From contig JAJYFE010000003.1 of assembly GCA_021785435.1 (NCBI GenBank), positions 1 through 64,000 on the forward strand: a stretch of DNA of 64,000 bases. Reading direction: 5' to 3'. Source of the DNA: Planctomycetota bacterium (GTDB taxonomy: Bacteria > Planctomycetota > Phycisphaerae > WQYP01). Below, piece after piece: positions 30,333 through 61,582 of the stretch (the first letter of the stretch is position 1; each line of letters opens with the position of its first letter). The position numbers were made by a program, and so were the translations under genes. The notes beneath the pieces are model-generated. The model did no database searches. It saw only the letters and a list, made by a program, of their open reading frames with translations, and was not told the origin of the DNA.

Positions 30333-30358
30333 GTGGCCGTTGCGGTGCGGCCAGCGGC

Positions 30359-30952: not shown

Positions 30953-30974
30953 AGATCACCGATGCTTTCTCACT

Positions 30975-32296: not shown

Positions 32297-32299
32297 GCT

Positions 32300-32908: not shown

Positions 32909-32912
32909 GGCC

Positions 32913-33621: not shown

Positions 33622-33705
33622 GGGTGGCGGAATGGCAGACGCTCAGGACTTAAAATCCTGTGACCTGTAAAGGTCGTGCGGGTTCGAGTCCCGCCCCGGG
33701 CAGTC
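33622..33705 (+). repeat. Second copy of tRNA-Leu positions 3 to 3' end (attR); not a functional tRNA
   Basis: Identical to 29662-29744 but 5' end is GA... instead of GC..., breaking acceptor-stem pair 2. Confidence 0.8.
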
Positions 33706-34357: not shown

Positions 34358-37300
34358 ATGATCGGGAGACAGGAGCCGATAACAGTGAACCAACCGCCAC
34401 CCATCCGGGAGGGCCAAACCATCACCGGTTCGCTGTTCAGTGAGCCGATGCGGGTGGTGACGGTTCGCACCGAGGGGCCTGACACCTGGATTGCCGGCCT
34501 GGTTGGCCTGCGGAGCCAACGATTTCACGAGGTCACACTGACCGCCGATCAAATCGCCAAGCTCACCATTCTCGATGCCGCGCTCAACTACGCCGGCGAC
34601 GGCCACTTGCTCCGCCTGGGCCTGCAGGCCTATGCGCTGGGCATCGCGTATGAATTCGATCCCTACTTTGGCCTGTCCATTTCCCGCGTGGATCCGCTGC
34701 CGCACCAGTTGGAGGCCGTGTACGACTATCTGCTGAAGCTCGCCCGCGTGCGTTTTCTGCTGGCCGATGACGCCGGGGCCGGCAAGACGATTATGGCCGG
34801 GCTGCTTATCCGCGAACTGGAACTGCGCGGCCTCGCCGAACGCATCCTGGTTGTTGCTCCGGCCAACCTGGCGTTCCAATGGCAACGGGAACTGCGGGAT
34901 AAATTCGAGGCGAAATTCGAGGTCATGCGGGGAACCGATATCCGGGAGCAGTTTGGCTTCAACCAATGGCAGGAAAAAAAGCGGATTATCACCTCACTGG
35001 ATCTGGCCAAACGCGACGACATATTGCCCGGCCTCGGGCAGGCGCACTGGGATCTGGTCATTGTGGATGAAGCCCACCGCATGTCGGCGTCTGATGAAAC
35101 CCACAAAAGCCTGCGCTATAAACTGGGCGAGCTACTCCGCGATACCACCGATCACCTGCTGTTGCTCACCGCCACGCCGCACAAAGGTAACCCTGAAAAC
35201 TTCAGCCTGTTTCTGCAACTGCTCGACCTCGATGCCTATGCGGACGTGAAATCCATCCGCCAGGCGATGGAGCGCCGCCGGGCGCCGTTCTATCTGCGCC
35301 GCACCAAGGAGGCCATGGTCTATTTCCCGCAGCGCCAAGCCGACGGCACCTGGGTGGCCCGGAAGATTTTCACCAAACGCATTCCGCACACCGTGGATTT
35401 TCAGATGGATGGGCCGGAGTTCAAGCTCTATCAGGAGGTCACGCGCTTTGTGAAACGGCACAGCGCCCGGGCGGCGGCGCAGGGGGATGACCCGCGCGCC
35501 CGCGCTGTGGGTTTTCTGATGTCGCTTTATCAGCGCCGGTTGGCCTCCAGCGCCTACGCCATGCGCCACAGCCTGGAAAACCGCGCCCACCGATTGGAAG
35601 ACGGCCTTAAGCATGCCCAGGAGTTGGCCCGCGGAGCGCCGCCGGATTTGCCGTCATCCGAAGAAATCGAAGAAATGGAGGACACCGAACGGGAGCGGCT
35701 GGAAAAAACGTTGGAAGCCATCACGCTGGCGGGTAATGCCGAACAGGTCCGCCTGGAAGTTCAGGAGCTGCGTGAACTTGCCGCCCAGGCCCGCACGGTG
35801 GAGGACGGCGGCGCTGAGGCGAAGCTGTCGCGCCTGAAAGAGCTGCTCCAGAAAGAGGGCTTTTTCGACCGGCCTGACCAGCGCCTGCTCGTGTTTACCG
35901 AGTTTAAGGACACGCTGGATTATCTGGTCGCCAGGTTCAAGGGCTGGGGCTTCAGGGTGGGGTGTATCCATGGCGGCATGAAGCCCGGCTCGCGTGATGA
36001 ACCCGGCACACGGCTCTTCGCCGAGCAGCAATTCCGCGATGGGGCGATTCAGATTTTGGTCGCCACGGAGGCCGCCGGCGAGGGGATCAACCTGCAGGTC
36101 TGCAACATCCTGTTTAACTACGATATCCCCTGGAATCCTAACCGCTTGGAACAACGGATGGGCCGGATTCACCGCTATGGCCAGCACAAGACGTGTCTCA
36201 TATTCAACTTCGTCGCGAGTAACACGATCGAGGGCCATGTTCTGCGGCGTCTGCTGGCCAAGTTGCAGGAAATACGGGACGCGCTCGATGATGACGCCGT
36301 CTTCAACGTGGTCGGCGAAGTGTTGCCGGCCGCGCACGTCGAAAAAGTGCTGCGCGATTATTACGCCGGTAAACTCGGCGATGGCGACCTGGAGGAGCGG
36401 CTGCTGAAAAATGTTGAAGAAGGCCAGTTCCGCGCCATCTGCCAAAACGCGCTGGAAGGCCTGGCCTCTAAAAAGCTCAATCTGCGGATGCTCGTGGAGC
36501 GCCGGGCCTTGGCCCAGGAACGCCGCATGGTGCCCGAAACCATCGCCCGTTTTATCCGCGAAGCAGCGCCCTATGCCCGGCTGGAGCTGAAAACGCTTTC
36601 CACCGTGCCGCATGCGTTCGAGCCGGGCCGCACGCCGCCGGCCTTACGCAGCTACGAACGCGCCCCGGATTGGCGGCTGCCGGCGCTTTCGATCAAGTAC
36701 CCGCGCTGCTCCACGGACCGCGAAGCGGCCGAGAAAAATTCCCTGGAATGGATCACGCCCGGCCATCCACTTTTCGAGGCTATACGGCGGCATACGTCGG
36801 ACCTGGCCGCGGACGCTCTTGGCAAGGGGGCCTGTTTTTACTCGCTGGAGCATGATACCCCGGTACGCCTTGACTTTTATCGCGCCCGCGTGGTGGACGG
36901 GCTTGGGCAGGTCATCCATGAACGGCTCTTCGCCGTGGAAGTGGCCGACGGCAAAGCCCCCGCCATCCGCGAGCCGGGGATCTTGGGCAATTTTACGCCA
37001 GCCCCGGCGCCGCACGATCTGCCTGCGGCAGCCCAGGAGCCGGAGCCAACGGCCTGGCTCCAGAAAACCGCGCTCCAGCCATTTCTGGAGGAAACCCGCC
37101 AAGAGCGGCTGGGGGAAATCGAACGCGTCGCCGAACACGTGAGGCTATCCCTGACCGAGCTCATGCAGAGAGCCGATGACGAAATCGGCAAAGCGGCTAA
37201 TGAGGTGGAGAAAAAGCTGCCCGGCGCGGAGGGGCGGCTTTCCCAGGCGGAAAACCGTCATGCCGAATTGCTGGCCCGCCGGGACCGCCGCCGCCGCGAA

Positions 37301-37798
37301 CTGGAGCGACAACGTTCGCTATCTCTGCAGGCCGTGGAGCGTCTGACCAGTGTTCTGGTTCTGCCGCATCCCGATCGGGATGCGCCGGAGGTGCGCAACC
37401 TCCGGCAAAATCTCCAGACCGAGGCCATCGCCATGCAGGCGGTGCTGGAGCACGAAAAGGCGCAAGGCCGGCAGGTTTATGACGTCCACGAGAAAAATCT
37501 CGGCTACGATATCACCAGTCTGGACTTAGATTCCGGCGAACTGCGGCTGATCGAAGTCAAAGGCCTCGGCGCGGAAAGCGGCTCGGTGCTGCTGACGCCC
37601 AATGAATTACGCGTCGCCCAGGACCGGCCCGAATGCTTCTGGCTCTACGTGGTCACGAACTGCAACGCCCAGCCGACCATTTTCCCACCGATCAAAAATC
37701 CCGCCCGCCTGCCCTGGGGCGAAGTGGTTAAGGTCCAGCACTATGCGATAACGCTTAAAGATATGCGAAGCAGCCTCTCCACGGAGGGAGCAAAATGA
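34358..37798 (+). CDS. SNF2-family helicase with C-terminal DUF3883 domain (defense helicase; DISARM DrmD-like)
   Basis: Walker A DDAGAGKT, DEAH box (VIVDEAHRM), motif VI QRMGRIHRYGQ; C-terminus GYDITSLDLDSGELRLIEVKG...FWLYVV matches DUF3883. Confidence 0.85.
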   Translation: MIGRQEPITVNQPPPIREGQTITGSLFSEPMRVVTVRTEGPDTWIAGLVGLRSQRFHEVTLTADQIAKLTILDAALNYAGDGHLLRLGLQAYALGIAYEFDPYFGLSISRVDPLPHQLEAVYDYLLKLARVRFLLADDAGAGKTIMAGLLIRELELRGLAERILVVAPANLAFQWQRELRDKFEAKFEVMRGTDIREQFGFNQWQEKKRIITSLDLAKRDDILPGLGQAHWDLVIVDEAHRMSASDETHKSLRYKLGELLRDTTDHLLLLTATPHKGNPENFSLFLQLLDLDAYADVKSIRQAMERRRAPFYLRRTKEAMVYFPQRQADGTWVARKIFTKRIPHTVDFQMDGPEFKLYQEVTRFVKRHSARAAAQGDDPRARAVGFLMSLYQRRLASSAYAMRHSLENRAHRLEDGLKHAQELARGAPPDLPSSEEIEEMEDTERERLEKTLEAITLAGNAEQVRLEVQELRELAAQARTVEDGGAEAKLSRLKELLQKEGFFDRPDQRLLVFTEFKDTLDYLVARFKGWGFRVGCIHGGMKPGSRDEPGTRLFAEQQFRDGAIQILVATEAAGEGINLQVCNILFNYDIPWNPNRLEQRMGRIHRYGQHKTCLIFNFVASNTIEGHVLRRLLAKLQEIRDALDDDAVFNVVGEVLPAAHVEKVLRDYYAGKLGDGDLEERLLKNVEEGQFRAICQNALEGLASKKLNLRMLVERRALAQERRMVPETIARFIREAAPYARLELKTLSTVPHAFEPGRTPPALRSYERAPDWRLPALSIKYPRCSTDREAAEKNSLEWITPGHPLFEAIRRHTSDLAADALGKGACFYSLEHDTPVRLDFYRARVVDGLGQVIHERLFAVEVADGKAPAIREPGILGNFTPAPAPHDLPAAAQEPEPTAWLQKTALQPFLEETRQERLGEIERVAEHVRLSLTELMQRADDEIGKAANEVEKKLPGAEGRLSQAENRHAELLARRDRRRRELERQRSLSLQAVERLTSVLVLPHPDRDAPEVRNLRQNLQTEAIAMQAVLEHEKAQGRQVYDVHEKNLGYDITSLDLDSGELRLIEVKGLGAESGSVLLTPNELRVAQDRPECFWLYVVTNCNAQPTIFPPIKNPARLPWGEVVKVQHYAITLKDMRSSLSTEGAK

Positions 37799-38844
37799 AA
37801 TCATTCGAGCACGGCTATCTATTGGATACGGCCATTTCCCACTCGCTACTGAGGTCGATGCGGGTATTGGGGGAATTTCGGGGCCGCGAGAATCTCTACA
37901 CTGAACAATTTCCAGAGGTTCTGGAAACGCTGCGGCAAGTCGCCCTCGTTCAAAGCGCTGAATCTTCCAATCGCATTGAGGGCATTACGGTCCTTCCCGA
38001 GCGCCTCGCCCCTCTGGTAACCAAGAAAACGCAGCCGCGTGACCGGTCGGAGCAGGAAGTGGCCGGTTATCGCGACGTACTGGCCGATATCCACTCCAAT
38101 CACGCGCGCTTGAAGTTATCCACGGACCTCATACTTCGCTGGCACCAGATGATCTACCACTACACCGGCGAGATAGGCGGCGCGTGGAAAACCGGCGACA
38201 ATGCCATCTTGGAAACGCGGCCCGAGGGTCGGCAGGTGGTGCGCTTCCGGCCTGTATCCGCCGTGGGCACGCCGCAGTTTATGCAGCGACTCGTGGAGCT
38301 TTTTCAGCAATCCCTGGCGGAAGCGAAAACCGACCCGCTCTTGCTGGTTGCCAGCGCCATCTTTGATTTTGAATGCATCCATCCATTCAAGGATGGCAAC
38401 GGGCGTATCGGCCGGTTGCTCACGCTTCTGCTGCTCTACCAGTGCGGCTACGAGGCCGGGCGCTATATCAGCCTTGAGCGCATCGTCGAGGAAAGCAAAG
38501 AGACTTACTACGAAGCTCTATATAAAAGCTCGCAGGGCTGGCACAACGGCGAGCATGACCTTCGCCCCTGGTGGGAATATTTCCTGGGCACGCTGATCGC
38601 CGCCTACAACGAGTTTGAATCCCGCGTGGGCACCCTAAGTGGCGCGCGCGGTGCCAAGCGGGAAATGGTGCGCCATGCCGTGGGTCGCCTGCCACAGCGA
38701 TTTACCGTCGGCGATTTGAAGCGAGTTTGCGGCGGTGTAAGTTACCCCACGTTGCAGCGGGCCCTGGCCGACATGCGACGCGAAAAGCTGCTGCGGTGCC
38801 TGGGTCGCGGTCCAGACGCCCAGTGGGAACGGATTGAGGGCTGA
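37795..38844 (+). CDS. Fic-family AMPylase (class II, internal inhibitory SxxxEG motif)
   Basis: HPFKDGNGRIGR Fic motif; upstream SNRIEG inhibitory-helix motif; C-terminal wHTH; ATGA overlap with helicase stop. Confidence 0.85.
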   Translation: MKSFEHGYLLDTAISHSLLRSMRVLGEFRGRENLYTEQFPEVLETLRQVALVQSAESSNRIEGITVLPERLAPLVTKKTQPRDRSEQEVAGYRDVLADIHSNHARLKLSTDLILRWHQMIYHYTGEIGGAWKTGDNAILETRPEGRQVVRFRPVSAVGTPQFMQRLVELFQQSLAEAKTDPLLLVASAIFDFECIHPFKDGNGRIGRLLTLLLLYQCGYEAGRYISLERIVEESKETYYEALYKSSQGWHNGEHDLRPWWEYFLGTLIAAYNEFESRVGTLSGARGAKREMVRHAVGRLPQRFTVGDLKRVCGGVSYPTLQRALADMRREKLLRCLGRGPDAQWERIEG

Positions 38845-38845
38845 T

Positions 38846-39436
38846 ATGATAATCTTATCACGAAGTGGACTGGTGATAAGAATGGATGGAAAAAGATCAC
38901 CAATGACGCTACTATCCCCCAGCCGCAAGATTGTCATCATCGCCGGGCCAAATGGGGCGGGGAAGACAACGTTCGCGGAAGAATTTCTACCGCTGGAGGC
39001 CGGCTGTCCCGATTTTATTAACGCCGACTTGATTGCCCGCGGCCTTTCGCCATTTGCGCCGGAGAGAGCGGCATTCGAGGCTGGACGGATCATGCTGGCA
39101 CTGATGGCGCGCAAGACCGCCGCAGGCGAAAGCTTCGCGTTTGAGACGACGCTCAGCGGTCGGAATTATGCCCACCGCATCGCGCAATGGCGTAAATCCG
39201 GCTACCATGTGAAACTGATCTTCCTGAGTGTGCCCTCGGTCGATCTGGCGGCAGCGAGGGTGCGAGCTCGCGTTGCGCAGGGCGGTCATAATGTCCCCGA
39301 AGATGTGATCCGGCGGCGGTTTAAATCCGGTCTCAAGAATTTCCATGCCACCTATCGTTCACTGGTGGATAGTTGGATTCTTTACGATAATTCCGTAAGG
39401 CCGCCGCGCGTCCTTGAATCAGGAGGAAACCCGTGA
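38846..39436 (+). CDS. Zeta-toxin-like P-loop kinase (AAA_33/zeta family)
   Basis: IIAGPNGAGKTT P-loop, ~195 aa, fold pattern of zeta/PezT-type kinases; overlaps fic stop. Confidence 0.6.
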   Translation: MIILSRSGLVIRMDGKRSPMTLLSPSRKIVIIAGPNGAGKTTFAEEFLPLEAGCPDFINADLIARGLSPFAPERAAFEAGRIMLALMARKTAAGESFAFETTLSGRNYAHRIAQWRKSGYHVKLIFLSVPSVDLAAARVRARVAQGGHNVPEDVIRRRFKSGLKNFHATYRSLVDSWILYDNSVRPPRVLESGGNP

Positions 39437-39645
39437 CCACACGAATGGATACGCAAGACCCCGACATCCTGGGATCGTTGCCGGCGCTGCGAAGGGCCGC
39501 GCACCGCGCTCGCCGCCTGGCCATCCGGACCGGTACGCCGTGCTACATCATGCGCCGAGGGAAAATAGTCAACATTGCCATAAAGCGCCGTGGCGGTGGC
39601 GCTGCGCCGCTACGGTCGCAAAGGCAAACTAAAAGCACCACCTGA
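39433..39645 (+). CDS. Small ORF (70 aa) translationally coupled to the zeta-like gene; possible cognate partner
   Basis: ATG overlaps zeta stop (ATGA); Arg-rich; no recognised family. Confidence 0.3.
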   Translation: MTTRMDTQDPDILGSLPALRRAAHRARRLAIRTGTPCYIMRRGKIVNIAIKRRGGGAAPLRSQRQTKSTT

Positions 39646-39712
39646 CGAAAAGGGGCCACAAAGCTCTGGAAGGGCAAAGGTTTGTGCTGGGCAGGCGAGG
39701 CGGGGAAGGCCG

Positions 39713-41329
39713 ATGAAAGTAGAAATCCCTCCAGACATAGAGGCGCTGATTTCCCGCAGCTATCCAGCGATTCTCGCGACCAAAATTCCGAAAGGCGAGA
39801 ATTTTGACGGTGATGCCGAGGAGCTGCAAACACGCGGTACAGCAATGGTCCGATGGTGTTACGGGATCGGGCTTGGGGGCCAGCAGCTGCCAGCCGGTGC
39901 ACTTTGCTTCCGGTTTACTGCATGCTCGAACCAAGACGGACAGGTCCAGCGGTTCAACGATTACTTCGCTGGCTGCGAACGCCGGAACAATTCACATGAG
40001 TGCGGAATCCCGATCGCGCACATTATCCTGCACATCCCGGGGCCCGATGGCAGCGAGGGTTGGGTCGGCGACTGCGACGGACTGCCGACGTTTAGAAAAT
40101 ATGACCAGTTCGGCTGGGTGCTGGAGGATTCCCTCCAATGGCTGCGCTGGTCGAGAGGCGGCATCGACGATAAGCAAAACGTCCAATCGCTCTGTACCTC
40201 GTGGGACCCGAATATCCACAAGCTCGCCGATTATCTGGGGAAAAACTTTGATCTATCCGGCAATAGCTTTGGGAAAGTGAAGATCGGTATCGCCAATCTG
40301 ACCAATGACTTGGCATCGAAACTTCTGTTCATCCCCGCTAATTCCGCCGGAGCCCATAAGCCCGTCCCCACGCAGGGCGACACCGAGGTCTTGAAGGAAT
40401 TTTACCGTCTTGATGCGGAGTTTTTACCATCCACTCTGAAGCTTCCCGATTGTGAAATCGCAAGCAGCCTGTTCGCCGCGTTGAGCTTCGCCTCCGGCCT
40501 ACGCCTCGGTTTTGCGGCTACCGTGGTTGTTCAAGGCGGCTGCCCGATCTTTCGTGAACTGCGGCCATGCCGAGGCGGCGTGACGGAGGCTCTGTGCGCC
40601 CCGACTGGCGAGGACGGGAATGCGGTAAAAAAGATCGCGTGGCTTTTTCTTCAGAGGCTGGCCGCTGACTTATCCCAGCTCTCACGGAACGATCCGCATT
40701 TCATGTGCACGCATCCGCTCGTCGGCGCTATCCAGAGAATTAACGAGGCGCTTTCCCGGCGCGGCGTGGAACATGGCGATGATCTCTACCTCACCCTCGA
40801 GCGGGCCTGCCTTTTGATCTCGGTGGCAATTGAGGCGGTCAGCAGGTGTTACGAGCCGAACGAAACTGGGGTGACTTGGCGGCCAACAAGAGAAAAGGGG
40901 GATGCTCGGGTCGAGAGGTGGATCGGCTCCAAGGCGTACGGATTGTGGGCCAGGTACCGCCACGCGCTCGCGCACCGGCTCAAGCTCATCGAGAACGATG
41001 CACCGAGCGCCAGTCGCCCTGGGGCGCGCGGCCAGGGCGCTGCCGCGCTCTCCGATGTCGTCCGCGCGTTTTTGGAGCGCGGCTCTGAGATTAACGGCCG
41101 GCTGCGCGACCTGTGGACCTATGAGCGGTTCCTGATGACGGCCTTTAACCATCTGGTACTGCGCGTCATCGGCTACGACGGCAAGGCAACTGATTGGATG
41201 GACAAGCCGGTGTCATTATACCAGATCAACGGTGGCAATGCACCGGCGCCCGAACTCAATAGTCTTAACAGAACTTTCTCGTCAGCGGACCAGCCCCGCG
41301 ACAGCACAGAAGCGGAGGGGCAACCTTGA
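39713..41329 (+). CDS. Hypothetical 538-aa protein, no recognisable domain, immediately upstream of and overlapping the MTase
   Basis: GGGGAAGG RBS then ATG at 39713; stop TGA overlaps TTG start of DUF1156 gene. Confidence 0.5.
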   Translation: MKVEIPPDIEALISRSYPAILATKIPKGENFDGDAEELQTRGTAMVRWCYGIGLGGQQLPAGALCFRFTACSNQDGQVQRFNDYFAGCERRNNSHECGIPIAHIILHIPGPDGSEGWVGDCDGLPTFRKYDQFGWVLEDSLQWLRWSRGGIDDKQNVQSLCTSWDPNIHKLADYLGKNFDLSGNSFGKVKIGIANLTNDLASKLLFIPANSAGAHKPVPTQGDTEVLKEFYRLDAEFLPSTLKLPDCEIASSLFAALSFASGLRLGFAATVVVQGGCPIFRELRPCRGGVTEALCAPTGEDGNAVKKIAWLFLQRLAADLSQLSRNDPHFMCTHPLVGAIQRINEALSRRGVEHGDDLYLTLERACLLISVAIEAVSRCYEPNETGVTWRPTREKGDARVERWIGSKAYGLWARYRHALAHRLKLIENDAPSASRPGARGQGAAALSDVVRAFLERGSEINGRLRDLWTYERFLMTAFNHLVLRVIGYDGKATDWMDKPVSLYQINGGNAPAPELNSLNRTFSSADQPRDSTEAEGQP

Positions 41330-44300
41330 TCCCCCAATCATGCAGACGTCTCGCCGAAGTGGATTTTCCGATTGCCGCGGTGTCGCGGCATTCGGTGCGG
41401 GAAAAGTCCATCCGGCACGGGCATCCATCCACGCTGCATTTATGGTGGGCGCGGCGGCCGCTGGCGGCGTGCCGAGCCGTGCTGATGGCACTGCTTTTGC
41501 CGGATCCGTGTGATACGCAATGCCCGCAAACGTTCAAAGCCGCGGCACGGCAAATCTTATTGGCGTTTCCGGAGCGGCCCTCGCGCTGGGACCAGGATAT
41601 CCAAAGCGACGAACGCCTGCGCCATGTTCTGCTGCATGAATTCATCGCCGATTTCGCCAACTGGGATCATGCCGCTAATCCGGCGTATCTGAAGACGGCA
41701 CGTGACCTGGTCAAGGCCGCCCATCCGGAAGAAACGCCGCTGGTGGTTGACCCCTTCGCCGGCGGCGGCTCGATTCCACTGGAAGCGTTGCGCATCGGCT
41801 GCGATGCCTTCGCCAGTGATTTGAATCCCGTGGCGTGCCTGATCCTGAAAGTGATGCTGGAGGATATTCCGCGGGAAACCCGCCGCAGAGGCGCGGAGAA
41901 CGCCGAATCATTGGCGGATGAACTCCGCCGAGTGGGGAAGCAGATAAAAGAGGAGGTGGAAAAGGAAGTCGGCGATTTGTACCCCAAAGATCCCGACGGC
42001 GCCACACCGATTGCGTATCTCTGGGCGCGGACGGTTAAATGCGAAGCGCCCAACTGCGGCGCGGAAATACCGCTGGTGCGGTCGTTCTGGCTGTGCAACA
42101 AACCGAACCGCAAACGGGCGCTGCGGTACACGGTGGTTCGTTGTGGCACGGGCTTCCAGCCCGTGAGGGAGGGAAACGGCCATGGGCACGATGCCCATGC
42201 CACCGTTGAGTTCGGAAACGGCCATGGGCAGGATGCCCATGCCACCGTTGAGTTCGAGATTTTCGAGCCGAAATCGGAAAAAGACGTTCCCGCCGGCACC
42301 GTGACGCGGGCCAAGGCGACCTGTCTATGCTGCGGGGCGGTTTTGCCGCCGCAGCGCGTGCGCGCGCAATTGGCCGCCCAGCGCGGCGGCGCGGATGTGA
42401 TATTTGCTTCTGACGCGGGCGATTGTGGCACGGGCTTCCAGCCCGTGATGGATGGAAATGACCATGGGCAGAACGCCCATGCCACCACCATCCAGAAACG
42501 CCGCGGCGCCTACCTGCCGCACTGGACACGCGAGGGGGCGACCTACAGCGTAACCTTTCGGCTCGCCGACAGCCTGCCGGCCAAGGTGCTCGCGGCGTGG
42601 GTCGGGGAGCGTGAGGATATCGTCAAAAGGGCAGCGACCATGGGCCGGCCGCTCACCGACGACGAAATGCGGCGCCTGGACGAGTTGCATTCGCAGCGTA
42701 TCGAAAAGTACCTTGACTCCGGCGCCGGCGAGTGCCAACTGAGGGACCCGCGGATCGCGAATATCGTTCGTGATTCGCTTCTGCATTTTGACGGCGACAG
42801 GTATGACCTGGCCGTATGGTGTGTCATGCCAAACCACGTACACGTGGTAGTTCGGCCCCGCCCCGGCCACGAACTGTCTGATATCCTCCACTCCTGGAAA
42901 AGTTTCACGGCGACAAAAGTCAACCGGCTGCTCGGCCGCACCGGTGCTTTCTGGCAGCCGGAATGTTACGACCACCTGATCCGCGACTGGGATGAACTCG
43001 CGCACGCTGTCGAGTACGTAATGGACAACCCGGGCAAGGCTGGCCTGCGGGATTGGCCCTGGGTCGGCCGCGGCACGGGCTTCCAGCCCGTGATGAACGG
43101 AAATGACCATGGGCAGGATGCCCATGCCACGACGCATGTGCCGCAACGCGTTGCTGGCGCGCGGATGTTGGCCGTGGTGACGCTCAAGCCCGGCCAGCCG
43201 GGCCGGCATTATCGCCTGCCAACCCCACCTGATTATCAGGCCGTCCGGAAGGCGCAGGATCGGCTCAAGGCCATTCTCGACGAATGGGAGCGGGGCGGGA
43301 AGAAGGGGCTTTGCCCCGTGCCGGATGAGCCGACGCCCGCCGGCGGTGGCTCCGGTGCCGGCCGCGCCTTCAGCGTCCAAAAATACGGCATGCTCCAGTG
43401 GGGCGACCTTTTCACGGCGCGGCAGAAGGTGACGCTGGTGCCCCTGGCGGCCGGCGTTGGCGCCGCAGCTCGCGAAAATCCAGCCTTGTCGAAGCTGTTA
43501 GCGTGCGCGCTGGGCATATTTGCGCGATCATGCAATGGTAACGCACGCATGCACCCGAACAGCTCCGTTGCGCCAGCCTTCGGAATGCAGACGCTTCCCA
43601 TCACCTGGACTTTCCCTGAGACAGTCATATCCGGCGGACGATCAGAGCACTTTGATGGAGCCCTCCGGCTTGTTGGGGACGCGCTCGACGGCCCCGGTAT
43701 CCCGGCGCGCAGCGGCGGGCAAGTTGAGCAGGCTGACGCGTCGGAAGTTCCCCTCCCCAGCGGCTCATCCAGCGCGTGGTTCACGGACCCGCCATACTAC
43801 GACGCCATCCCCTATTCCGATCTTTCGGACTTCTTCCTGGCGTGGCTCAAGCGCTGCCTTCCGGGCAACGGCGGCCTGCGCGACCCGTTCGACCCCGCCA
43901 ACAGGTTATCACCGAAATTACGCGAGGCCGTCCAGGACGAAACCAAAGTGGACAGCGGCCGACCAAAGGACCGTGCATGGTTCGAGGAGAAAATGGCGGC
44001 GGCTTTCGCCGAGGGCCGCCGTATTCTCCGTGACGACGGGGTCGGCTGCGTGGTATTTGCGCACAAGACCACCGAAGGCTGGGAAGCCCTGCTCTCCGGT
44101 ATGACCCGCGGCGGCTGGACGGTCACCGGTTCCTGGCCCATCGCCACGGAAATGAGCTCGCGCCTGCGCGCCCGCGACTCCGCCGCCCTTGCCACCAGCG
44201 TGCACCTTATCTGCCGCCCGCGGCCGGATGACGCGCCGGTGGGCGATTGGGGCGAGGTTCTGCGCGAATTGCCCAAACGCGTTGGCGACTGGATGGAACG

Positions 44301-45192
44301 GCTGCAAGGCGAAGGCATTCGCGGGGCGGATTTGGTGTTTGCCTGCATCGGACCGGCGCTGGAAATTTTCAGCCGCTACCGCAAGGTTGAAACCGCCGAT
44401 GGTCGGGAAGTGAAATTGGCCGAATACCTGGAAAAAGTCTGGGAAGTGGTTGGCCGTACGGCGTTGGAAAACGTCTTAGGCTCGGCGGAGGCGAAAGTGC
44501 GTAACGGCGCCGCGGGGGCATTGGAAGAAGATGCCCGGCTGACGGCCCTGTTTCTGTGGGCACTGCAAAGCACGGATGTTAAAGCCCCAGCCGATCGGTC
44601 CGATCCGTCCGGTTCGTCTGATGACGCCGAGGCCGACGAAAACGACGATGAGGACGCCTCCGCGCCTCGGCGTTCCAGCGGCTTTTCGCTCGTTTTTGAC
44701 GTCGTCCGCCGGTTCGCCCAGCCATTGGGGGTAGACCTTTCCAAATGGGAAGGGCGGATCATCCAGACCAGCAAAGGCGTGGTGCGGCTTCTGCCGGTTG
44801 GCGAACGGGCCAAGCAGCTCTTTGGCGAAGAAGGCGCCGCGGTGATGGCCAGCCGGCTGGAAAGCTGGGCCGATCCACAGCAAACGCTGTTTCCAAAAAA
44901 TGAGGCCGACTCACCGCGGAGGCGCGGAGGACGCGGAGCTGAAAAAAGCATTCGGGAGGAGGAAGCTTTGCGGATTCGTGGTGAAATCCAGGCCACCACG
45001 CTGGACCGCGTTCACGCCGCCATGCTGCTGCAGGCCGGCGGCCAGACCAACGGCCTGCGCGCCCTGATTAAGGCCGAACAGCAACGCGGCCCGGATTTCC
45101 TGCGGCTGGCCAATGCCCTGTCGGCGCTTTATCCTTCTGACAGCGAAGAAAAGCGATTATTGGATGCCATGCTGTTGGCCGTGCCGAGGTAA
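41326..45192 (+). CDS. DUF1156-family N6-adenine DNA methyltransferase (DrmMI/PglXI-like) carrying in-frame REP and RAYT insertions
   Basis: N-terminus ...VREKSIRHGHPSTLHLWWARRPLAACRAV is the DUF1156 signature; MTase motif I VVDPFAGGGS and motif IV TDPPYY; 1288 aa versus ~1000 expected. Confidence 0.8.
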   Translation: MIPQSCRRLAEVDFPIAAVSRHSVREKSIRHGHPSTLHLWWARRPLAACRAVLMALLLPDPCDTQCPQTFKAAARQILLAFPERPSRWDQDIQSDERLRHVLLHEFIADFANWDHAANPAYLKTARDLVKAAHPEETPLVVDPFAGGGSIPLEALRIGCDAFASDLNPVACLILKVMLEDIPRETRRRGAENAESLADELRRVGKQIKEEVEKEVGDLYPKDPDGATPIAYLWARTVKCEAPNCGAEIPLVRSFWLCNKPNRKRALRYTVVRCGTGFQPVREGNGHGHDAHATVEFGNGHGQDAHATVEFEIFEPKSEKDVPAGTVTRAKATCLCCGAVLPPQRVRAQLAAQRGGADVIFASDAGDCGTGFQPVMDGNDHGQNAHATTIQKRRGAYLPHWTREGATYSVTFRLADSLPAKVLAAWVGEREDIVKRAATMGRPLTDDEMRRLDELHSQRIEKYLDSGAGECQLRDPRIANIVRDSLLHFDGDRYDLAVWCVMPNHVHVVVRPRPGHELSDILHSWKSFTATKVNRLLGRTGAFWQPECYDHLIRDWDELAHAVEYVMDNPGKAGLRDWPWVGRGTGFQPVMNGNDHGQDAHATTHVPQRVAGARMLAVVTLKPGQPGRHYRLPTPPDYQAVRKAQDRLKAILDEWERGGKKGLCPVPDEPTPAGGGSGAGRAFSVQKYGMLQWGDLFTARQKVTLVPLAAGVGAAARENPALSKLLACALGIFARSCNGNARMHPNSSVAPAFGMQTLPITWTFPETVISGGRSEHFDGALRLVGDALDGPGIPARSGGQVEQADASEVPLPSGSSSAWFTDPPYYDAIPYSDLSDFFLAWLKRCLPGNGGLRDPFDPANRLSPKLREAVQDETKVDSGRPKDRAWFEEKMAAAFAEGRRILRDDGVGCVVFAHKTTEGWEALLSGMTRGGWTVTGSWPIATEMSSRLRARDSAALATSVHLICRPRPDDAPVGDWGEVLRELPKRVGDWMERLQGEGIRGADLVFACIGPALEIFSRYRKVETADGREVKLAEYLEKVWEVVGRTALENVLGSAEAKVRNGAAGALEEDARLTALFLWALQSTDVKAPADRSDPSGSSDDAEADENDDEDASAPRRSSGFSLVFDVVRRFAQPLGVDLSKWEGRIIQTSKGVVRLLPVGERAKQLFGEEGAAVMASRLESWADPQQTLFPKNEADSPRRRGGRGAEKSIREEEALRIRGEIQATTLDRVHAAMLLQAGGQTNGLRALIKAEQQRGPDFLRLANALSALYPSDSEEKRLLDAMLLAVPR
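42143..42256 (+). repeat. REP-like composite hairpin cluster inside the MTase gene, in-frame (35 codons)
   Basis: Hairpin A GGCACGGGCTTCCAGCCCGTG plus duplicated hairpin B GGCCATGGGCA(C/G)GATGCCCATGCC followed by accgttgagttc twice. Confidence 0.6.
42425..43140 (+). mobile_element. REPtron: REP-associated tyrosine transposase (RAYT / IS200-like Y1 TnpA) flanked by same-orientation REP hairpin units, inserted in-frame in the MTase gene
   Basis: HUH motif VMPNHVHVVV and ...FWQPECYDHLIRDWDELAHAVEYVMDNPGKAGL (catalytic Tyr); REP units 42425-42484 and 43082-43140; possible ATG at 42448; no stop before the MTase resumes. Confidence 0.65.
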
Positions 45193-45200
45193 AGGACCTA

Positions 45201-46276
45201 TGTTGCGATTCGAACACATCAACATTCGTGGGTTCAAGTCCATTGAGCGATTGGAGGATTTCGCGCTCGGGCAGCTCAACGTCCTCATTGGCGCCAACGG
45301 TGCGGGTAAAAGCAACTTTGTGGAGTTCTTCCGGCTCCTCGGGGCGATCCGCCAAGGGCGGCTGCGAGCGTACATGGAGCGAAATGCCCCGGCGGACGGC
45401 TATTTCTACAAGGGCATAAAGCAAACCCGGCGCCTTGAGGCCGCGCTGGATTTCGGCATGGGCAACGGATACAGCTTCTGCCTTGAGCCGACCGCGGACG
45501 GAGGCGTGCTCATTGGGGATGCGACAGACTACCGTGGGCTAGGCGGTCAAAGTCCCGAGGTCGGCCATGCGTACCCAGTGAACGACCGGGAATCGCAGAG
45601 CGCTTCGTTCTGGATGGCGCCTGGAGTGCCTGATTGGCAGGTTTATCACTTCCACGACACCAGCGCAACCGCCGGCATGCGCCGCGAAGCCGGCGTCGAT
45701 CAGGCGGAAGCCCTGGCTCCGAACGGCGATAACCTGGCGGCGTTCCTCTTGGCCCTGCGTGCGCACCACGGTGAAAGCTATCAGCTCCTACGCCAGACGG
45801 TGCAGCGAGTGATGCCGCATTTCGATGACTTTGACCTTCGGAAGCGCGATGGGAAAAACGAGGAACTGGTCCGGCTGACCTGGCGTCAGAAAGGCTCGGA
45901 CTATATCTTCCAACCGGGCCACCTTTCGGACGGCACCATTCGCTTTATCTGTCTGGCCACCGCGCTGCTGCAACCCAACCCACCCGCGACCGCCGTTTTT
46001 GACGAGCCGGAACTGGGGCTGCACCCGGAAGCGCTGGTTATTCTGGCCGGCCTGTTTCGGTCGGCGTCAGCTCGGATGCAGATCATCGTGGCCACGCAGT
46101 CGCCGGTTTTGCTGAATGAATTCGAGCTGGCGGATGTGATCACCGTCGACAACGTCCAGGGCGCGACGCAGTTTAACCGGCTCGATAAAGAAGCCCTGCG
46201 CCAGTGGCTGGAGGACTACACCCTCGGCGACCTGTGGCAAAAACGAACGCTGCGTGGAGGCGTGAACCATGCTTGA
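45201..46276 (+). CDS. AAA/ABC-type ATPase (AAA_21-like), AbiLi-like
   Basis: Walker A GANGAGKSN, Walker B AVFDEPELGLHP; 358 aa; 8 bp after MTase stop. Confidence 0.8.
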
Positions 46277-46955
46277 GGTGCTGGTGCTTTGCGAGGGTCA
46301 GACCGAACGGGAATTTTGTAACGGCCTGCTCAGCCCCCGCTTGGCCGAACACGGGGTCGCTATGAGGGCTACGTTACGTGGCAAGCCGCAGCGGAAACGC
46401 GGTGGAATGTGCGGATGGGATGTGTACCAACGGGAGTTGATCCGTCTGCCCGGTGGGCGGAGGGACTGTCACGTGGCGGTGCTGGCCGATTATTACAAAA
46501 TGGATGGCACCTGGCCCGGCCGCCCGGAAGCCCCGAAGCGAGACCCGCTTGAAAGGGGGCGGTTTGTGGAGCAGTCGTTGCGTCAGGCGATGGAGCCAAG
46601 ACTCGGATCGCGGTTCCATCCGTGCGTAGCACTGCACGAATTTGAAAGTCTGATGTTCGTCTCGCCGCGGATATCGGCCGACACCCTCAGTCGGGCCGGA
46701 TCGGGCGGCCATTCCGCCGGCCTGGCGAAGGACCTCGCCGCGGTAGTCGCCGAATTCGACGGCTCGGTGGAACTTATCAACGACTCCGAAGTCGGCGCGC
46801 CGTCCAAGCGGCTCCAGCAGCTTGTGCCTGGTTATGATAAGGTCGTTTTCGCAACGCTGGTCGCCGGCGCCGTCGGTATCGACAATCTGCGTAAGGGGTG
46901 CCCATGGCTTGACCGCTGGCTTGACGGATTGGAAAAATGCGCCAGCCAGCGATGA
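46269..46955 (+). CDS. DUF4276-family protein (AbiLii-like)
   Basis: MLEVLVLCEGQTEREF N-terminus typical of DUF4276; overlaps ATPase stop by 8 bp. Confidence 0.7.
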   Translation: MLEVLVLCEGQTEREFCNGLLSPRLAEHGVAMRATLRGKPQRKRGGMCGWDVYQRELIRLPGGRRDCHVAVLADYYKMDGTWPGRPEAPKRDPLERGRFVEQSLRQAMEPRLGSRFHPCVALHEFESLMFVSPRISADTLSRAGSGGHSAGLAKDLAAVVAEFDGSVELINDSEVGAPSKRLQQLVPGYDKVVFATLVAGAVGIDNLRKGCPWLDRWLDGLEKCASQR

Positions 46956-47121
46956 GGTTGCGGAGTAGCGGCAGGCGAAAACTCAATTGCCTTGGCCGAC
47001 CACGGTGGTAGGGCCGCCGGACCGCGGTCAATCGCCACCTCGGCGGCAAGAGAACGGCGCCCTCGGGGGCGAACGTGCCCCCGACTGGCCAAGGCGGTCC
47101 TGGCGCTTTATCCTGACGGTT

Positions 47122-47466
47122 ATGAGAACGCGCCGAAAACAGGGCGTTGCCACCGCCTCTTTGATCCGCCGCATGGTCCGGCGGATGGTGGAGCAATTCC
47201 ACCCGGAACAAGTCATTCTCTTCGGCTCGTATGCCCGCGGCGACGCCAGACCCGACAGTGACGTGGATTGACTGGTGGTGATGGAGGTACAGGGGGCGAA
47301 GCGGGAGAAGGTGCTGGAGATACGGAGGGCTTGGGGTGGGTTCGAGGTGGCGGAGGACGTGCTGATAAGCCGCCCCGCGGAGTTCGCGTGGCGCAGGCTA
47401 TACCCCGGCACCATCGAACGGCCGGCCCATCTGGAAGGAAAGGTGCTGTATGCCCGGCACCGGTGA
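47122..47466 (+). pseudogene. Minimal nucleotidyltransferase (MNT, HEPN/MNT antitoxin type) with in-frame TGA at 47269-47271
   Basis: ...ILFGSYARGDARPDSDVD*LVVMEVQG...: GSxARG/DxD NTase motif, then TGA exactly where Leu of DVDLLVV is expected, then the rest of the MNT domain in the same frame. Confidence 0.65.
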
Positions 47467-47615
47467 TCTTACTGTGGTCGTCGCGGAATGGGTAGCCAAG
47501 GCAGAGGGCGACCTTAAAACTGCCGTGCACACCTTGAAGTTGGGGCCGGAATGTCCGACGGAAACTGTCGCATTTCACGCCCAGCTGTGCCACGGGGATG
47601 TTCACCGCGGAGGGC
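47450..47615 (+). pseudogene. HEPN-domain toxin N-terminal fragment, truncated by the downstream GxxExxY gene
   Basis: ...VAEWVAKAEGDLKTAVHTLKLG...VAFHAQ matches the HEPN N-terminal helix; sequence after AFHAQ is replaced by the start of the next gene. Confidence 0.45.
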
Positions 47616-48035
47616 GCAGAGGAAAGCGACAGGCAGGACCTGACGGGAAGGATAATCGGGGCGGCCATTGAAATCCACAAGACGATTGGGCCTGGACTGC
47701 TGGAATCCGCCTACGAAGAATGTATTGCCCATGAGATGAACCTTCGGGGTTTGAACTTTGACCGGCAACGGCCGGTTCCCGTTGCCTATAAGGACGTGGG
47801 ATTGGATTGCGGATACCGCCTGGACTTTTTAGTTGAAGAGGCTGTCGTGCTCGAACTAAAGGCAGTTGAGGCAATCCAACCCATTCACGAAGCCCGGTTA
47901 TTGACCTGTCCGAAGCTCGGGGGTTGGATCGTCGGCTTGTTGATCAATTTCAATGTTCCAGTTCTCAAATCCGGCATCAGGCGCGTTGTTCTTGATTATA
48001 AAGAGCCCTCTGCGTGCTCCGCGCCTCCGCGGTGA
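47598..48035 (+). CDS. GxxExxY-family protein (PD-(D/E)XK-like nuclease superfamily)
   Basis: IIGAAIEIHKTIGPGLLESAYEECIAHEM...DCGYRLDFLVEEAVVLELKAV...LLINFNVPVLKSGIRRVV, matches the GxxExxY family. Confidence 0.8.
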   Translation: MFTAEGAEESDRQDLTGRIIGAAIEIHKTIGPGLLESAYEECIAHEMNLRGLNFDRQRPVPVAYKDVGLDCGYRLDFLVEEAVVLELKAVEAIQPIHEARLLTCPKLGGWIVGLLINFNVPVLKSGIRRVVLDYKEPSACSAPPR

Positions 48036-48047
48036 ATGGAGTTGATC

Positions 48048-50972
48048 ATGGAACCCTGGTACAAAATCACCACGCCGCGTAAGGAAGTGCGCGAAGGCCG
48101 GTCGTTCAACCCGGATGAATTCGCCATCCACTTAGAGCAGGTCATCGGCAAAACCGCGCCGGAAGATTACCGTGACCCGAAGCAATTTTTCGCCCGGACC
48201 TGCTTCACGCGGGCATTGCGCGAACATGCGGGTATGGTGCTGCGCCGGCTGGCCGGAGAGACCGTAAACACGGCGCCGGTGATGACGCTGATTACCCAGT
48301 TCGGCGGCGGCAAAACCCACACCCTGACGGCCCTTTACCACCTGGCGGTCAGCGGGGCCAAAGCGGCGGATTATCCCGGCATTGGCCAGCTGATAGGCCA
48401 AGCCGGCCTGGCCGCTGTGCCGGAGGCGCGGGTCGCGGCGTTCGTGGGCAACGCCTGGGACCCGAAAGCTGGCCGTGAAACGCCATGGATTGATATCGCC
48501 TGGCAGTTGGCCGGTGAAAAGGGTGTGGCCGAATTAGGAAACTCCGCCCAGACTACGCCGCCGGGGACGGAGGCGCTCCATCGCGTCTTTAAGGCGGCCC
48601 ATGCGCCGGTGCTGCTGCTGTTTGACGAGGTGCTTAATTTTCTCAATCGCCACCGGGGCATGGCCGATCAATTCCATGCTTTCATTCAGAATTTGACCGT
48701 GGCGACCACCGGCGCCACGCGCGGCGCCGCGGTGATCAGCCTGCCGCGGAGCCAGGTGGAAATGACCGATTGGGATATGCAGTGGCAGGACAAGATCACC
48801 AAGGTCGTCCGGCGCGTGGCCAAGGACCTGATTGCCAACGATGAGGCGGAAATCAGCGAGGTGGTGCGGCGCCGGCTTTTTGAGGATCCCCAGACCGAGG
48901 AAGCCCGCCAAACCCTGGAACGGGCGCGGAAAACCGCCGCCCGGATCTATGCCGACTGGTGTTTTGAACGCCGGGCGCAACTGCCGCCGGAATGCACCGC
49001 GGTGGATACCTCCACCACCCAGTCCAAGGCCAGGGATTTCCTGCGCGGCCGCTTCGAGGCCTGCTATCCATTTCATCCGGCTACGCTCTCGGTGTTCCAG
49101 AGAAAATGGCAGTCGCTGTCCCAGTACCAGCAGACGCGCGGCACGTTGGCCATGCTGGCCCAGTGGATTTCCTGGGCTTACAAGGATGGCTATGCGCACG
49201 CCCGGCGCGAGCGGCTGCTTACCCTCGGCTCGGCGCCGCTGCAGGTGCAGGAGTTCCGCGCGGTGGTGCTGGGGCAGTTGGGAGAGTCACGCCTGGAGGC
49301 AGCCATCGGCGTGGACATTGCCGGCGAGCAAGCCCACGCCCGCGCCCTTGATGCGGACGCCAAAGGAGCGCTGAAGGACATTCACCGCCGGGTGGCGACG
49401 GCGATATTCTTTGAGTCGTCCGGCGGTCAGATTGACAAAGTGGCCCATCTGCCGGAGCTGCGTTTCGCGCTCGGCGAGCCGGAAGTGGAAACCACCACGG
49501 TGGACAGCGCGGTGCGCGCCCTGGAGGATCGGTCGTATTACATTCGCACCGTTGGCTCGGACGGTTTTCGCATCGGTTACGAACCCACGATGAAAAAGGT
49601 GGTCAGCGACCGCCGGGCGTCGCTGGATGAAGAATCCGAAATCAGGCCCGCCATGCGGAAACTCGTCGAAGAGCAGTTCCGCCGGGGGGCCAGCGTACCG
49701 GTCATTCCCTTCCCGGCGGACGGGGCAGCCGTCCCGGACAATCCGAAGCTGACCCTGGTGATCCTGGACCCGACGCAGGAATGGACGGGCAATGGAGTCT
49801 GGCGCGAACAGCTTGCCCAGTGGACGCGCCAGCGCGGCCAATCGCCCCGGCTCTATCCGGGCGCGTTGGTCTGGTGCCTGAAGAAGCCCGGCCGCGATCT
49901 GCGCGAAAGCGTAGAGCTTTGGCTGGCGTGGAAGCGCGTGGAGCGGGAGATGGCGGAAGGAACGCTTGGCGAAGCCCGCGAGCGCGCTGAGTCGGCTGAA
50001 CTTCATTCGAAGGTGGTGGCGGCCGAGGCGGCGGCCAAAGACGAAGTGTGGGGCGGATACCGTTTCGCCGTCCTGGCCGAGGCCAGGGAGTCGGTCGCCG
50101 AAGGAGGCGACTCAACAAGGCAAGGCGGCCTGAAAGTTATAGACCTCGGTGCCGGCCATTCCTCCAGCGGCGAGACGCTGTGCGGCCGGGTTATCACCGC
50201 TTTGAAATCCCAGGCGATTCTGAGCGAATCGGTCGGCGCGGGCTATATCGAACGCAACTGGCCGCCGGCGCTCAAAGAAGCTGGAGCCTGGCCGCTGGCC
50301 AGCCTGCGACAGAGCTTTTTGAACGGCGCCCTGACGCGTCTACTGGACCCGGATGCCACCTTGCGTGGCAAAATCGTCGAATTCGTCAGCAAAGGTGATT
50401 TCGGTCTCGCCTCTGGCCCGCAGCCGGGCGGCGGCTACGAGCGCCTCTGGTACGCCGAGTTGCTGGCCCCGGACGAGGTCGCCTTTGAACCGGGCGTATT
50501 TCTGCTGACCAAAGCCAAGGCCCAGGCGATCAAGAATATTGCCGAGGCAGAATGGTTTGCCGTCAGGGGCGACGGCGCCGCATCCGCTCGCCCCGCCAGC
50601 GGGCGGGCAGGCTTTGTCGAGTCGTCTCCTTCGGCGACCGGCGGGGGCATCCGCTCGGGCGAGCTTTTCAGACCGCAAGCCGGAAACGAAGAGGTCCAAA
50701 CCAAAGGCGGGCAACCGGAAGCCGCCTGCCCGGCGGAGTCCGCCGCAACCGAGGCGCGTAAGAACTATCGGATCGTCGGCCAGGTGCCGCCGGAGCTTTG
50801 GAACCGTCTCGGCACACGGATCTTGCCCAAGCTGCGCAGCGCCGGCGCGGAGCTGCACGTCGGCGTCGAGTTCCAGATCGCCGTGGAGCCGCACGCCGCT
50901 ACCGCGTTCGAGTCCGACATTCATCAGATCCTCGCCGATCTCGGTCTGACCGGCCAGGTGCGAGTGGAATAA
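48048..50972 (+). CDS. DUF499-family ATPase (predicted defense-system component)
   Basis: N-terminus MEPWYKITTPR... and LITQFGGGKTHTLTALYHL (DUF499 P-loop signature); 975 aa. Confidence 0.8.
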   Translation: MEPWYKITTPRKEVREGRSFNPDEFAIHLEQVIGKTAPEDYRDPKQFFARTCFTRALREHAGMVLRRLAGETVNTAPVMTLITQFGGGKTHTLTALYHLAVSGAKAADYPGIGQLIGQAGLAAVPEARVAAFVGNAWDPKAGRETPWIDIAWQLAGEKGVAELGNSAQTTPPGTEALHRVFKAAHAPVLLLFDEVLNFLNRHRGMADQFHAFIQNLTVATTGATRGAAVISLPRSQVEMTDWDMQWQDKITKVVRRVAKDLIANDEAEISEVVRRRLFEDPQTEEARQTLERARKTAARIYADWCFERRAQLPPECTAVDTSTTQSKARDFLRGRFEACYPFHPATLSVFQRKWQSLSQYQQTRGTLAMLAQWISWAYKDGYAHARRERLLTLGSAPLQVQEFRAVVLGQLGESRLEAAIGVDIAGEQAHARALDADAKGALKDIHRRVATAIFFESSGGQIDKVAHLPELRFALGEPEVETTTVDSAVRALEDRSYYIRTVGSDGFRIGYEPTMKKVVSDRRASLDEESEIRPAMRKLVEEQFRRGASVPVIPFPADGAAVPDNPKLTLVILDPTQEWTGNGVWREQLAQWTRQRGQSPRLYPGALVWCLKKPGRDLRESVELWLAWKRVEREMAEGTLGEARERAESAELHSKVVAAEAAAKDEVWGGYRFAVLAEARESVAEGGDSTRQGGLKVIDLGAGHSSSGETLCGRVITALKSQAILSESVGAGYIERNWPPALKEAGAWPLASLRQSFLNGALTRLLDPDATLRGKIVEFVSKGDFGLASGPQPGGGYERLWYAELLAPDEVAFEPGVFLLTKAKAQAIKNIAEAEWFAVRGDGAASARPASGRAGFVESSPSATGGGIRSGELFRPQAGNEEVQTKGGQPEAACPAESAATEARKNYRIVGQVPPELWNRLGTRILPKLRSAGAELHVGVEFQIAVEPHAATAFESDIHQILADLGLTGQVRVE

Positions 50973-58019: not shown

Positions 58020-58023
58020 CGCC

Positions 58024-61571: not shown

Positions 61572-61582
61572 GGAGAATCTGT

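Follow-up and report, generated by a model that had tools for sequence, protein, structure and literature searches.

What is the gene that lies directly upstream of the DUF1156 methyltransferase gene in a defence locus of a Planctomycetota bacterium, and does it belong to the methyltransferase system itself or merely travel with it? The question is raised by an open reading frame (ORF) of 538 codons, hereafter the target, on contig JAJYFE010000003.1, within the 64,000-nucleotide stretch that was analysed as a whole (the window). The initial annotation, made from the letters of the sequence, had left two options side by side, namely a specificity or regulatory subunit that is co-translated with the methyltransferase, or unknown defence cargo. 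The reading favoured here, with a probability of roughly 0.55, is that the target is a lineage-restricted cargo gene in a variable slot 5' of hmaB, inside a Type-1 BR/Hma defence operon, and not a core or specificity subunit of that operon. The features needed to follow this argument are the following:

39713..41329, + strand: the target ORF, 538 aa, of an orphan family, with an N-terminal region of ~240 aa predicted as mixed alpha/beta and a C-terminal region of ~300 aa predicted as mainly helical
34358..37798, + strand: HmaA, an SNF2 helicase with a C-terminal NOV_C nuclease domain (PADLOC, 2e-173; Pfam)
41326..45192, + strand: HmaB, a DUF1156 N6-adenine methyltransferase of 1288 aa with an in-frame REP-RAYT-REP insert (PADLOC, 4e-96; Pfam; NCBIfam)
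48036..50972, + strand: HmaC, a DUF499 ATPase (PADLOC, 2e-91; Pfam; NCBIfam)

When considered as a whole, the locus is a complete Hma system, on which PADLOC, Pfam and NCBIfam agree, and which corresponds to a Type-1 DUF499-centred "BR" system in the terms of Rakesh & Krishnan 2026 (PMC12839542). The target is on the same strand as the Hma genes and tightly packed with them, and both core-gene junctions are filled by other genes, with at least four inserted modules besides the target. The intergenic positions of hmaA-hmaB-hmaC are known to attract defence genes (PMC11232893 section 18; PMC12839542 section 35): in ~66.5% of hma loci, further genes are inserted between the core genes, and the term "defence gene insertion hotspot" has been applied to this arrangement (Liu et al. 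2024, PMC11232893); auxiliary or backup effectors embedded in BREX/BR core loci are reported from at least 4363 taxa (PMC12839542). The option of unknown defence cargo is consistent with this published hotspot position, with the other inserted modules and with the variability of the slot itself.

Among orthologous Hma loci, the slot 5' of hmaB is found in three states, being occupied by the target, occupied by two other genes (220 aa and 273 aa), or empty (34 nt). The first state is that of clade A, which comprises the window together with contigs L002-4 and L017-23 (11 contigs, from several samples and two NCBI metagenome-assembled genomes); here the order 70-aa ORF-target-hmaB is constant, and the region further upstream is variable, with either Fic/zeta genes or a different HEC-01 pair. 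The empty state is represented by L024-27 (HmaA 78% and HmaB 65-78% identical), where hmaA is followed by a 73-aa ORF, 34 nt and hmaB, the target is absent, and an in-frame deletion scar of a zeta-like gene is present. In L032-34 (Fic 88% and HmaB 78-84% identical), the order is Fic...zeta, a 68-aa ORF, the 220-aa and 273-aa genes, and hmaB; that the latter two genes of L032 might be a split target homologue was considered and rejected, as neither blastp nor an unfiltered hmmsearch revealed any similarity. As expected of cargo, the target lies inside a core locus, shares its strand and is present in only some of the orthologous loci, and it neither recurs throughout orthologous Hma loci nor shows profile similarity to HmaA, HmaB or HmaC, as a core component would.

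The more distant homologues P0003 and P0004, referred to as clade B, are found in a different setting. No DUF1156 gene surrounds them on their contigs of 4.5 and 10.5 kb, which cover up to 6 kb upstream and up to 2.7 kb downstream, and no Hma gene is present on the 10.5-kb contig. Instead, the order is a DUF3800 gene, a 760-nt spacer containing TTGACA-17-TATAAG, the homologue, and a gene encoding a transmembrane (TM) segment and a RadC/JAB-like domain; judged from its sequence, the TTGACA-17-TATAAG element looks like the homologue's own promoter. The conserved adjacency to DUF1156 genes in other genomes, which the initial annotation had recommended checking, thus holds in clade A and fails in clade B, so that DUF1156 is not a conserved partner of the family. 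Because the slot is empty or differently filled in orthologues, and because clade B lies outside the Hma context, the target is regarded as cargo and not as a subunit.

It is nevertheless important to establish that the target is a gene at all. Its frame runs from ATG 39713 to the TGA at 41327-41329, 538 codons without interruption, and is preceded by the following element:

39702..39709, + strand: Shine-Dalgarno-like sequence GGGGAAGG, 5' of ATG 39713, by direct reading

The large ORF with a good ribosome-binding site (RBS) described at the outset is thereby confirmed. A longer version starting at GTG-39590 is unlikely, since all homologues begin with M[KN]VEIP at the position of ATG 39713, and an in-frame stop is found upstream in L016. 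Coding statistics, which would have told against the proposal if poor, are sound: the GC content at codon positions 1/2/3 is 0.61/0.48/0.67, similar to that of neighbouring genes, and the ratio of nonsynonymous to synonymous substitution rates (dN/dS, Nei-Gojobori) is 0.25 against clade B, 0.27 when a diverged tract is compared with L002, and 0.57 among clade B sequences. Long spurious ORFs are plentiful in GC-rich DNA, and decay is seen elsewhere in the locus, for instance in an MNT/HEPN remnant; a chance ORF or a decaying, non-functional pseudogene is nevertheless effectively refuted by full-length homologues that share the target's start and end at 36-40% identity and by dN/dS values far below 1, and can be given next to no probability. 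The gene is also intact in all of more than 15 contigs, its codon-position GC is normal, and the chance of a 538-codon open frame at ~60% GC is, by our own estimate, ~1e-8 per start. On this coding evidence, the target is a real gene under purifying selection.

The family to which it belongs is new and extremely rare, although the cargo phenomenon itself is already known. The target has zero matches in Pfam, PADLOC, NCBIfam and PHROGs, a profile search of PDB sequences with the target yielded no match, and the whole target, four homologues and three fragments searched at E <= 10 against profile libraries returned only noise (e.g., CBP66_2nd, E = 0.05-0.13); the original impression that no motif is recognisable is thus borne out by all of these collections. 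A word-index search of 5.8 billion clusters returned only the target itself, P0002 (86%) and P0003 (37%); searching 1.84 billion representatives exhaustively with an HMMER profile extended this set by P0004 (534 aa) and two fragments. P0003 and P0004 align over their full length at the identities given above (E = 4.6e-86 and 6.9e-175). Two further candidates from the HMMER search, P0007 and P0008, are repetitive surface proteins with 4 and 9 matched stretches, and were rejected as repeat-driven noise. A cluster look-up gave 15 sequences in 6 clusters, none informatively named, meaning that the family amounts to about six 90%-identity clusters among ~15 billion proteins. No homologue emerged when GTDB genomes and JGI metagenomes were scanned with degenerate patterns. 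All 11 exact matches to the back-translated motif LFAALSFASG were due to chance, and tblastn against plasmids and phages found no match to the target.

The junction between the target and hmaB is where the idea of co-translation originated, and it is described by one further feature:

41314..41328, + strand: hmaB RBS GGAGGG and TTG start, within or overlapping the 3' end of the target; the TTGA overlap occurs in the window allele only

The initial annotation had the target's TGA overlapping a TTG/ATG region that starts the DUF1156 gene. This is correct for TTG 41326, with which the stop forms a 4-nt TTGA overlap in the window allele, and incorrect for ATG 41340, which by direct reading is out of frame with hmaB. 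TTG 41326 is the true hmaB start, because GGAGGG lies 6 nt 5' of it and the N-terminus MIPxxCxRLAEVDFP is conserved in orthologues, where ATG takes the place of TTG. In the other 10 clade-A contigs, the target ends in ...RTFS-TAG and is followed by a 31-nt spacer carrying hmaB's own AAGGAG RBS; the stop/start overlap is therefore not conserved among homologous loci but confined to the window allele. Together with the orthologous Hma loci that do without the gene and with the non-Hma context of clade B, this leaves the proposed specificity or regulatory subunit, co-translated with the methyltransferase, unsupported. The proposal is further weakened by the fact that the family counts ~6 clusters, whereas Hma/BR systems are reported from thousands of taxa (PMC12839542, PMC8565338).

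The same junction is also crossed by a polymorphic region:

40838..41478, + strand: mosaic tract spanning the target 3' third, the gene junction and the first ~50 hmaB codons, in four blocks with 2-3 diverged alleles each

When the window is compared with L002, DNA identity is ~100% over 39419-40837, drops to 34-86% over 40838-41478, and returns to ~99% from 41479 onwards. Synonymous divergence (dS) is 1.2 inside the tract versus 0.004 outside; since dN/dS inside is 0.27 at that dS, the tract represents diverged functional alleles and not mutational noise. Block breaks lie at ~40890, ~40978 and ~41396, and scoring of 225 informative sites in 11 contigs shows that the blocks reassort among contigs:

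WWWW: window
LLLL: L002, L003
LWLW: L017, L019, L020, L021
LLLW: L022, L023
LWL plus a third allele: L018

Assembly chimerism is unlikely, because the alleles share no long identical stretch in the tract and the mosaics recur in independent samples. Block 4 corresponds to a loop of the HmaB DUF1156 domain. At the protein level this loop reads SIRHGHPSTLHL, KNFPAGHPSSLHQ or PLVRNHPQSFHQ, and SIRHGHPSTLHL is the orthologue type. This DUF1156 signature loop, EK-xxxxx-HP-xxx-H-x-WWARRP (window 41396-41478, HmaB aa ~24-39), thus exists as three alleles in an hmaB that is otherwise ~99% identical, and the allele carried by the window matches orthologues. That the target C-terminus and the HmaB loop form a co-adapted pair was considered and rejected, as the blocks reassort independently among haplotypes. 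The sequence pattern is consistent with recombination between alleles that co-circulate in a population which is near-clonal elsewhere, and selection possibly maintains these alleles; speculatively, the block-wise shuffling suggests that the C-terminal third of the target is a surface under conflict-driven diversification.

With regard to the protein itself, conserved positions cluster in a few motifs, two of which are listed here:

40469..40498, + strand: LFAALSFASG, aa 253-262, the most conserved motif, invariant in 4/4 full-length homologues
40958..40975, + strand: R416-x4-H421, invariant; RHALAH in the window, RTALTH in P0002 and RNPLAH in clade B; a HEPN-like dyad, to be taken as a lead only

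Other conserved motifs are HPL (334-336), DLYL (357-360), RG-E-N-R-RDL (456-467) and NH-VLR-IGY-G (479-490). An AlphaFold2 (AF2) model of the full-length target, built from a shallow alignment, reached a predicted local distance difference test score (pLDDT) of 32, and a model of residues 236-538 (303 aa, 5 sequences) reached a pLDDT of 50 and a predicted template modelling score (pTM) of 0.57. The C-terminal part is modelled as mainly helical; it also contains two short hairpins and, at residues 429-443, a variable linker. When these models were compared with PDB and BFVD by Foldseek, only generic helical proteins were returned, all at E > 0.8. Thus, the remote-homology searches recommended at the outset (profile libraries, PDB sequences and Foldseek) produced no relative of known family.

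Several alternatives compete with the cargo reading for this body of evidence. One of them retains the target as a lineage-specific accessory subunit or regulator of the HmaB methyltransferase, kept at a fixed ratio with HmaB by translational coupling and binding its N-terminal DUF1156 domain. It draws on the TTGA overlap in the window, on the position of the target directly upstream of hmaB in 11/11 clade-A contigs while other cargo varies, and on the polymorphic tract, which covers both the target C-terminus and the DUF1156 loop; but every other haplotype separates the genes by the 31-nt spacer with its own RBS, orthologous Hma loci lack the target or carry unrelated genes in the slot, clade B homologues have no DUF1156 gene beside them, and the few clusters of the family face Hma systems numbering in the thousands. 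Moreover, target blocks and the hmaB block reassort freely (LWLW, LLLW, LWL plus third allele), so that there is no allele-to-allele co-variation of the kind expected from a co-adapted interface. This alternative is unlikely. Equally improbable is that the target is a HEPN-type abortive-infection RNase, in which R416-x4-H421 of the C-terminal helical domain would cut RNA once the N-terminal domain has sensed infection or Hma inhibition. An R-x4-H with a polar residue is a HEPN signature, and the motif is present in 4/4 full-length sequences on a predicted helix, with a polar residue (H/T/N/N) after the Arg, which is weak evidence; as a short motif, it resembles the RNxxAHxxRL of Abi_2/AbiD-type HEPN proteins. 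HEPN RNases are also among the commonest auxiliary effectors of BREX/BR loci (PMC12839542). Yet a Pfam hmmscan of whole proteins and C-terminal fragments with a cut-off as permissive as E <= 10 revealed no HEPN/Abi family, no structural match was obtained with Foldseek in PDB or BFVD, the dyad sits at a helix end entering the variable linker in the fragment model, and, by our own estimate, a spacing of this kind would arise by chance with a probability of ~0.2, given that 11 Arg and 3 His are invariant.

A passenger unrelated to defence, such as a mobile-element remnant or a niche metabolic or regulatory protein residing in a recombination-prone slot, appears marginally less probable still. 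No defence domain is detected in the target, the island adjoins a tRNA-Leu integration site with an integrase, REP/RAYT elements are active in the same locus, and the clade B context is not demonstrably a defence island. Against this stand the purifying selection kept in two very different contexts, the fact that the other identifiable inserts in the operon all belong to defence or toxin families (Fic, zeta-like kinase, HEC-01, MNT/HEPN, PDDEXK_3), the absence of any transposase, integrase or terminal-repeat signature tied to the target, and the lack of a match in plasmid or phage collections. The most far-reaching proposal receives little weight: it is improbable that the target founds a new, very rare family of phage-defence sensors or effectors, whose C-terminal third together with the hypervariable loop of the HmaB DUF1156 domain would form a phage-maintained, recombination-shuffled "specificity cassette".

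The cargo reading is preferred over these alternatives, and several observations weigh against it as well. No defence or effector domain was found in any profile library or PDB sequence search, the AF2 models are poor (pLDDT 32 and 50) and have no Foldseek match below E = 0.8, and the homologues all come from a few related metagenome studies, which amounts effectively to two independent contexts. Furthermore, the block formed by the 70-aa ORF, the target and hmaB is constant in the window lineage while other cargo varies, and both diverged junction alleles retain the target beside hmaB, which would fit a functional tie to HmaB specific to this lineage.

Comparison with known systems places the target close to, but not within, described categories. 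For instance, the defence genes that Liu et al. (PMC11232893) describe within hmaABC include Septu, PARIS, Ppl, AAA_21 pairs and GmrSD-like genes; like them, the target is tightly packed among the core genes, here in the hmaA-hmaB interval and with the strand shared, and is present or absent among orthologous loci, and the window also has the pair of AAA_21 and partner that these authors describe between hmaB and hmaC. Unlike them, the target matches no recognisable defence family, and it is not known to confer a defence phenotype. Another example is provided by the auxiliary effectors of BREX and DUF499-centred BR loci, which are read as a second defence layer and are commonly of HEPN, OLD-ABC/TOPRIM and PD-(D/E)XK types (PMC12839542); the target shares with these its flanking by core genes and its likely co-transcription, but has no demonstrable nuclease or RNase domain and belongs to a family that is orders of magnitude rarer. 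With AbiD/F-type (Abi_2) abortive-infection HEPN proteins it shares a helical C-terminal region, an R-x4-H followed by a hydrophobic/basic pattern, and a defence-locus context, but no profile or structural similarity. Finally, the shuffling of target recognition domains (TRDs) in hsdS genes resembles the exchange, block by block, of diverged allelic segments between otherwise identical target/hmaB loci, but here there is no HsdS/TRD homology, the tract crosses a gene boundary, and there are no obvious flanking repeats and no invertase.

In terms of function, the target would most likely act as an autonomous auxiliary ("backup") defence protein, as do other genes amassed between hmaA, hmaB and hmaC. 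Its N-terminal alpha/beta region could serve as a sensor or regulator and its C-terminal helical region as an effector, which, more speculatively, may be a HEPN-like RNase acting through the invariant R416-x4-H421; transcription together with hmaB would tie its presence to that of the restriction-modification-like system. Extreme rarity, fast evolution and mosaic alleles are signs of a conflict gene. In our best account, the target probably provides a second layer of defence, with its C-terminal third as the diversifying surface; any particular biochemistry is proposed with far less confidence.

The remaining inserted modules of the operon are arranged as follows:

37795-38844, + strand: Fic gene, in a separate inserted module 5' of the target (37795..39645)
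38834-39436, + strand: zeta-like AAA_33 kinase, in the same inserted module as Fic
39433-39645, + strand: 70-aa ORF coupled to the kinase by a GTGA overlap, in the same module as Fic and the zeta-like kinase
45200..48035, + strand: inserted modules between hmaB and hmaC (HEC-01 pair, MNT/HEPN remnant, PDDEXK_3 nuclease)
~45200-46955, + strand: HEC-01 pair, an AAA_21 ATPase and DUF4276, between hmaB and hmaC
46987-47600, + strand: decayed MNT/HEPN pair, between hmaB and hmaC
47598-48035, + strand: PDDEXK_3 nuclease, 145 aa (E = 7e-37), between hmaB and hmaC

The zeta-like kinase and a downstream ORF of 60-73 aa, which overlap by 4 nt, form a recurrent two-gene module, possibly a toxin-antitoxin pair, found inside and outside Hma loci (window 38834-39645; L025 3912-4001, as a scar; L030 1359-2074). 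In L025 the kinase is reduced to an in-frame deletion scar (RKIVIIAGP|PRVPESGGNP) with the small ORF intact, and L002, L018 and L023 retain just the last ~35 kinase codons. A role for the 70-aa ORF as the target's antitoxin or regulator was rejected, since it is coupled to zeta-like kinases outside Hma loci and without the target: the small ORF partners an AAA_33 kinase in the absence of the target in L030/31, L024-27 and L032-34, and clade B has no small ORF. The 70-aa ORF is accordingly assigned to the kinase, whose stop it overlaps in this locus as well as in unrelated ones. In the decayed pair, the MNT nucleotidyltransferase ORF is interrupted by an in-frame stop (47269-47271), after which the same frame continues, and the HEPN-like N-terminus (EWVAKAEGDLKTA...) stops after ~50 aa. 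The PDDEXK_3 gene, also present in L017 and L019, abuts the hmaC start in the same frame, with only its stop codon in between.

Within hmaB, a unit of repetitive extragenic palindromic (REP) elements and a REP-associated tyrosine transposase (RAYT) lies in frame at 42141-43131. The REP-like palindromes TGTGGCACGGGCTTCCAGCCCGTG...CATGGGCAGGATGCCCATG, with copies at 42141, 42183, 42423 and 43068, encode GTGFQPV..HGQDAHAT, and the REP-flanked RAYT segment looks complete (NF047646, E = 1e-18; HUH motif HVHVV, YDHLIR). The hmaB frame is open across haplotypes (1270, 1284, 1288 and 1298 aa), and in the orthologues L025 and L032, where HmaB measures 1067 and 1060 aa, the RAYT segment is missing. It is unusual for a RAYT to be read through within a DNA methyltransferase.

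On the chromosome, the island is preceded by a duplicated tRNA-Leu and an integrase/PrimPol islet, and genes of sulfur metabolism (APS kinase, aprA-like, qmoA-like and sat) form its boundary. Between the two copies of tRNA-Leu(TAA), at 29659-29745 and 33618-33702 (region 29659-33702), lies an islet of 4 kb that encodes a short integrase, a Phd/YefM antitoxin and a Prim-Pol; from its layout this looks like a tandem integration site, the Hma island starting right after the second tRNA-Leu copy. Downstream of hmaC, a terminator-like hairpin TGGGGCCTGCGTCCCCG followed by GTTTTAAT occurs twice, at 51122-51138 and 51194-51210, 72 nt apart. Scanning the locus with Rfam and for promoters and terminators brought up nothing of relevance. 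Judging from the flank at 51214-62803, where APS kinase, an AprA-like flavoprotein, a QmoA/HdrA-like protein carrying an FlpD domain, and ATP sulfurylase are encoded, the host probably belongs to the dissimilatory sulfur-cycling bacteria and has a GC content of ~60%.

In clade B, the RadC/JAB-like gene (L016 7828-8541; L001 1717-2343) begins 14 nt after the homologue, and its product has an N-terminal TM helix and an unusually long motif spacer, HNHP-x11-PSGQD (Pfam RadC, E = 0.024); beyond it lies a convergent gene for a protein of >700 aa with a kinase-like end and a zinc ribbon. A 5' leader that appeared by eye and in MAFFT alignments to be conserved between the window and clade B was dropped, being not significant in blastn-short and absent from L001.

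Genes amassed between the core genes of BREX, Hma and restriction-modification operons have, time and again, proved to represent new defence systems. It is thus reasonable to regard a full-length protein that is under selection, has no detectable relatives and occupies such a slot as a candidate for a new effector or sensor fold, and the specificity cassette, if true, would be a new way to couple an accessory protein to a BREX-related methyltransferase. The concrete value of this locus is the natural comparison it offers, with three states of one slot and co-existing recombinant haplotypes of the C-terminal third of the target in a single population.

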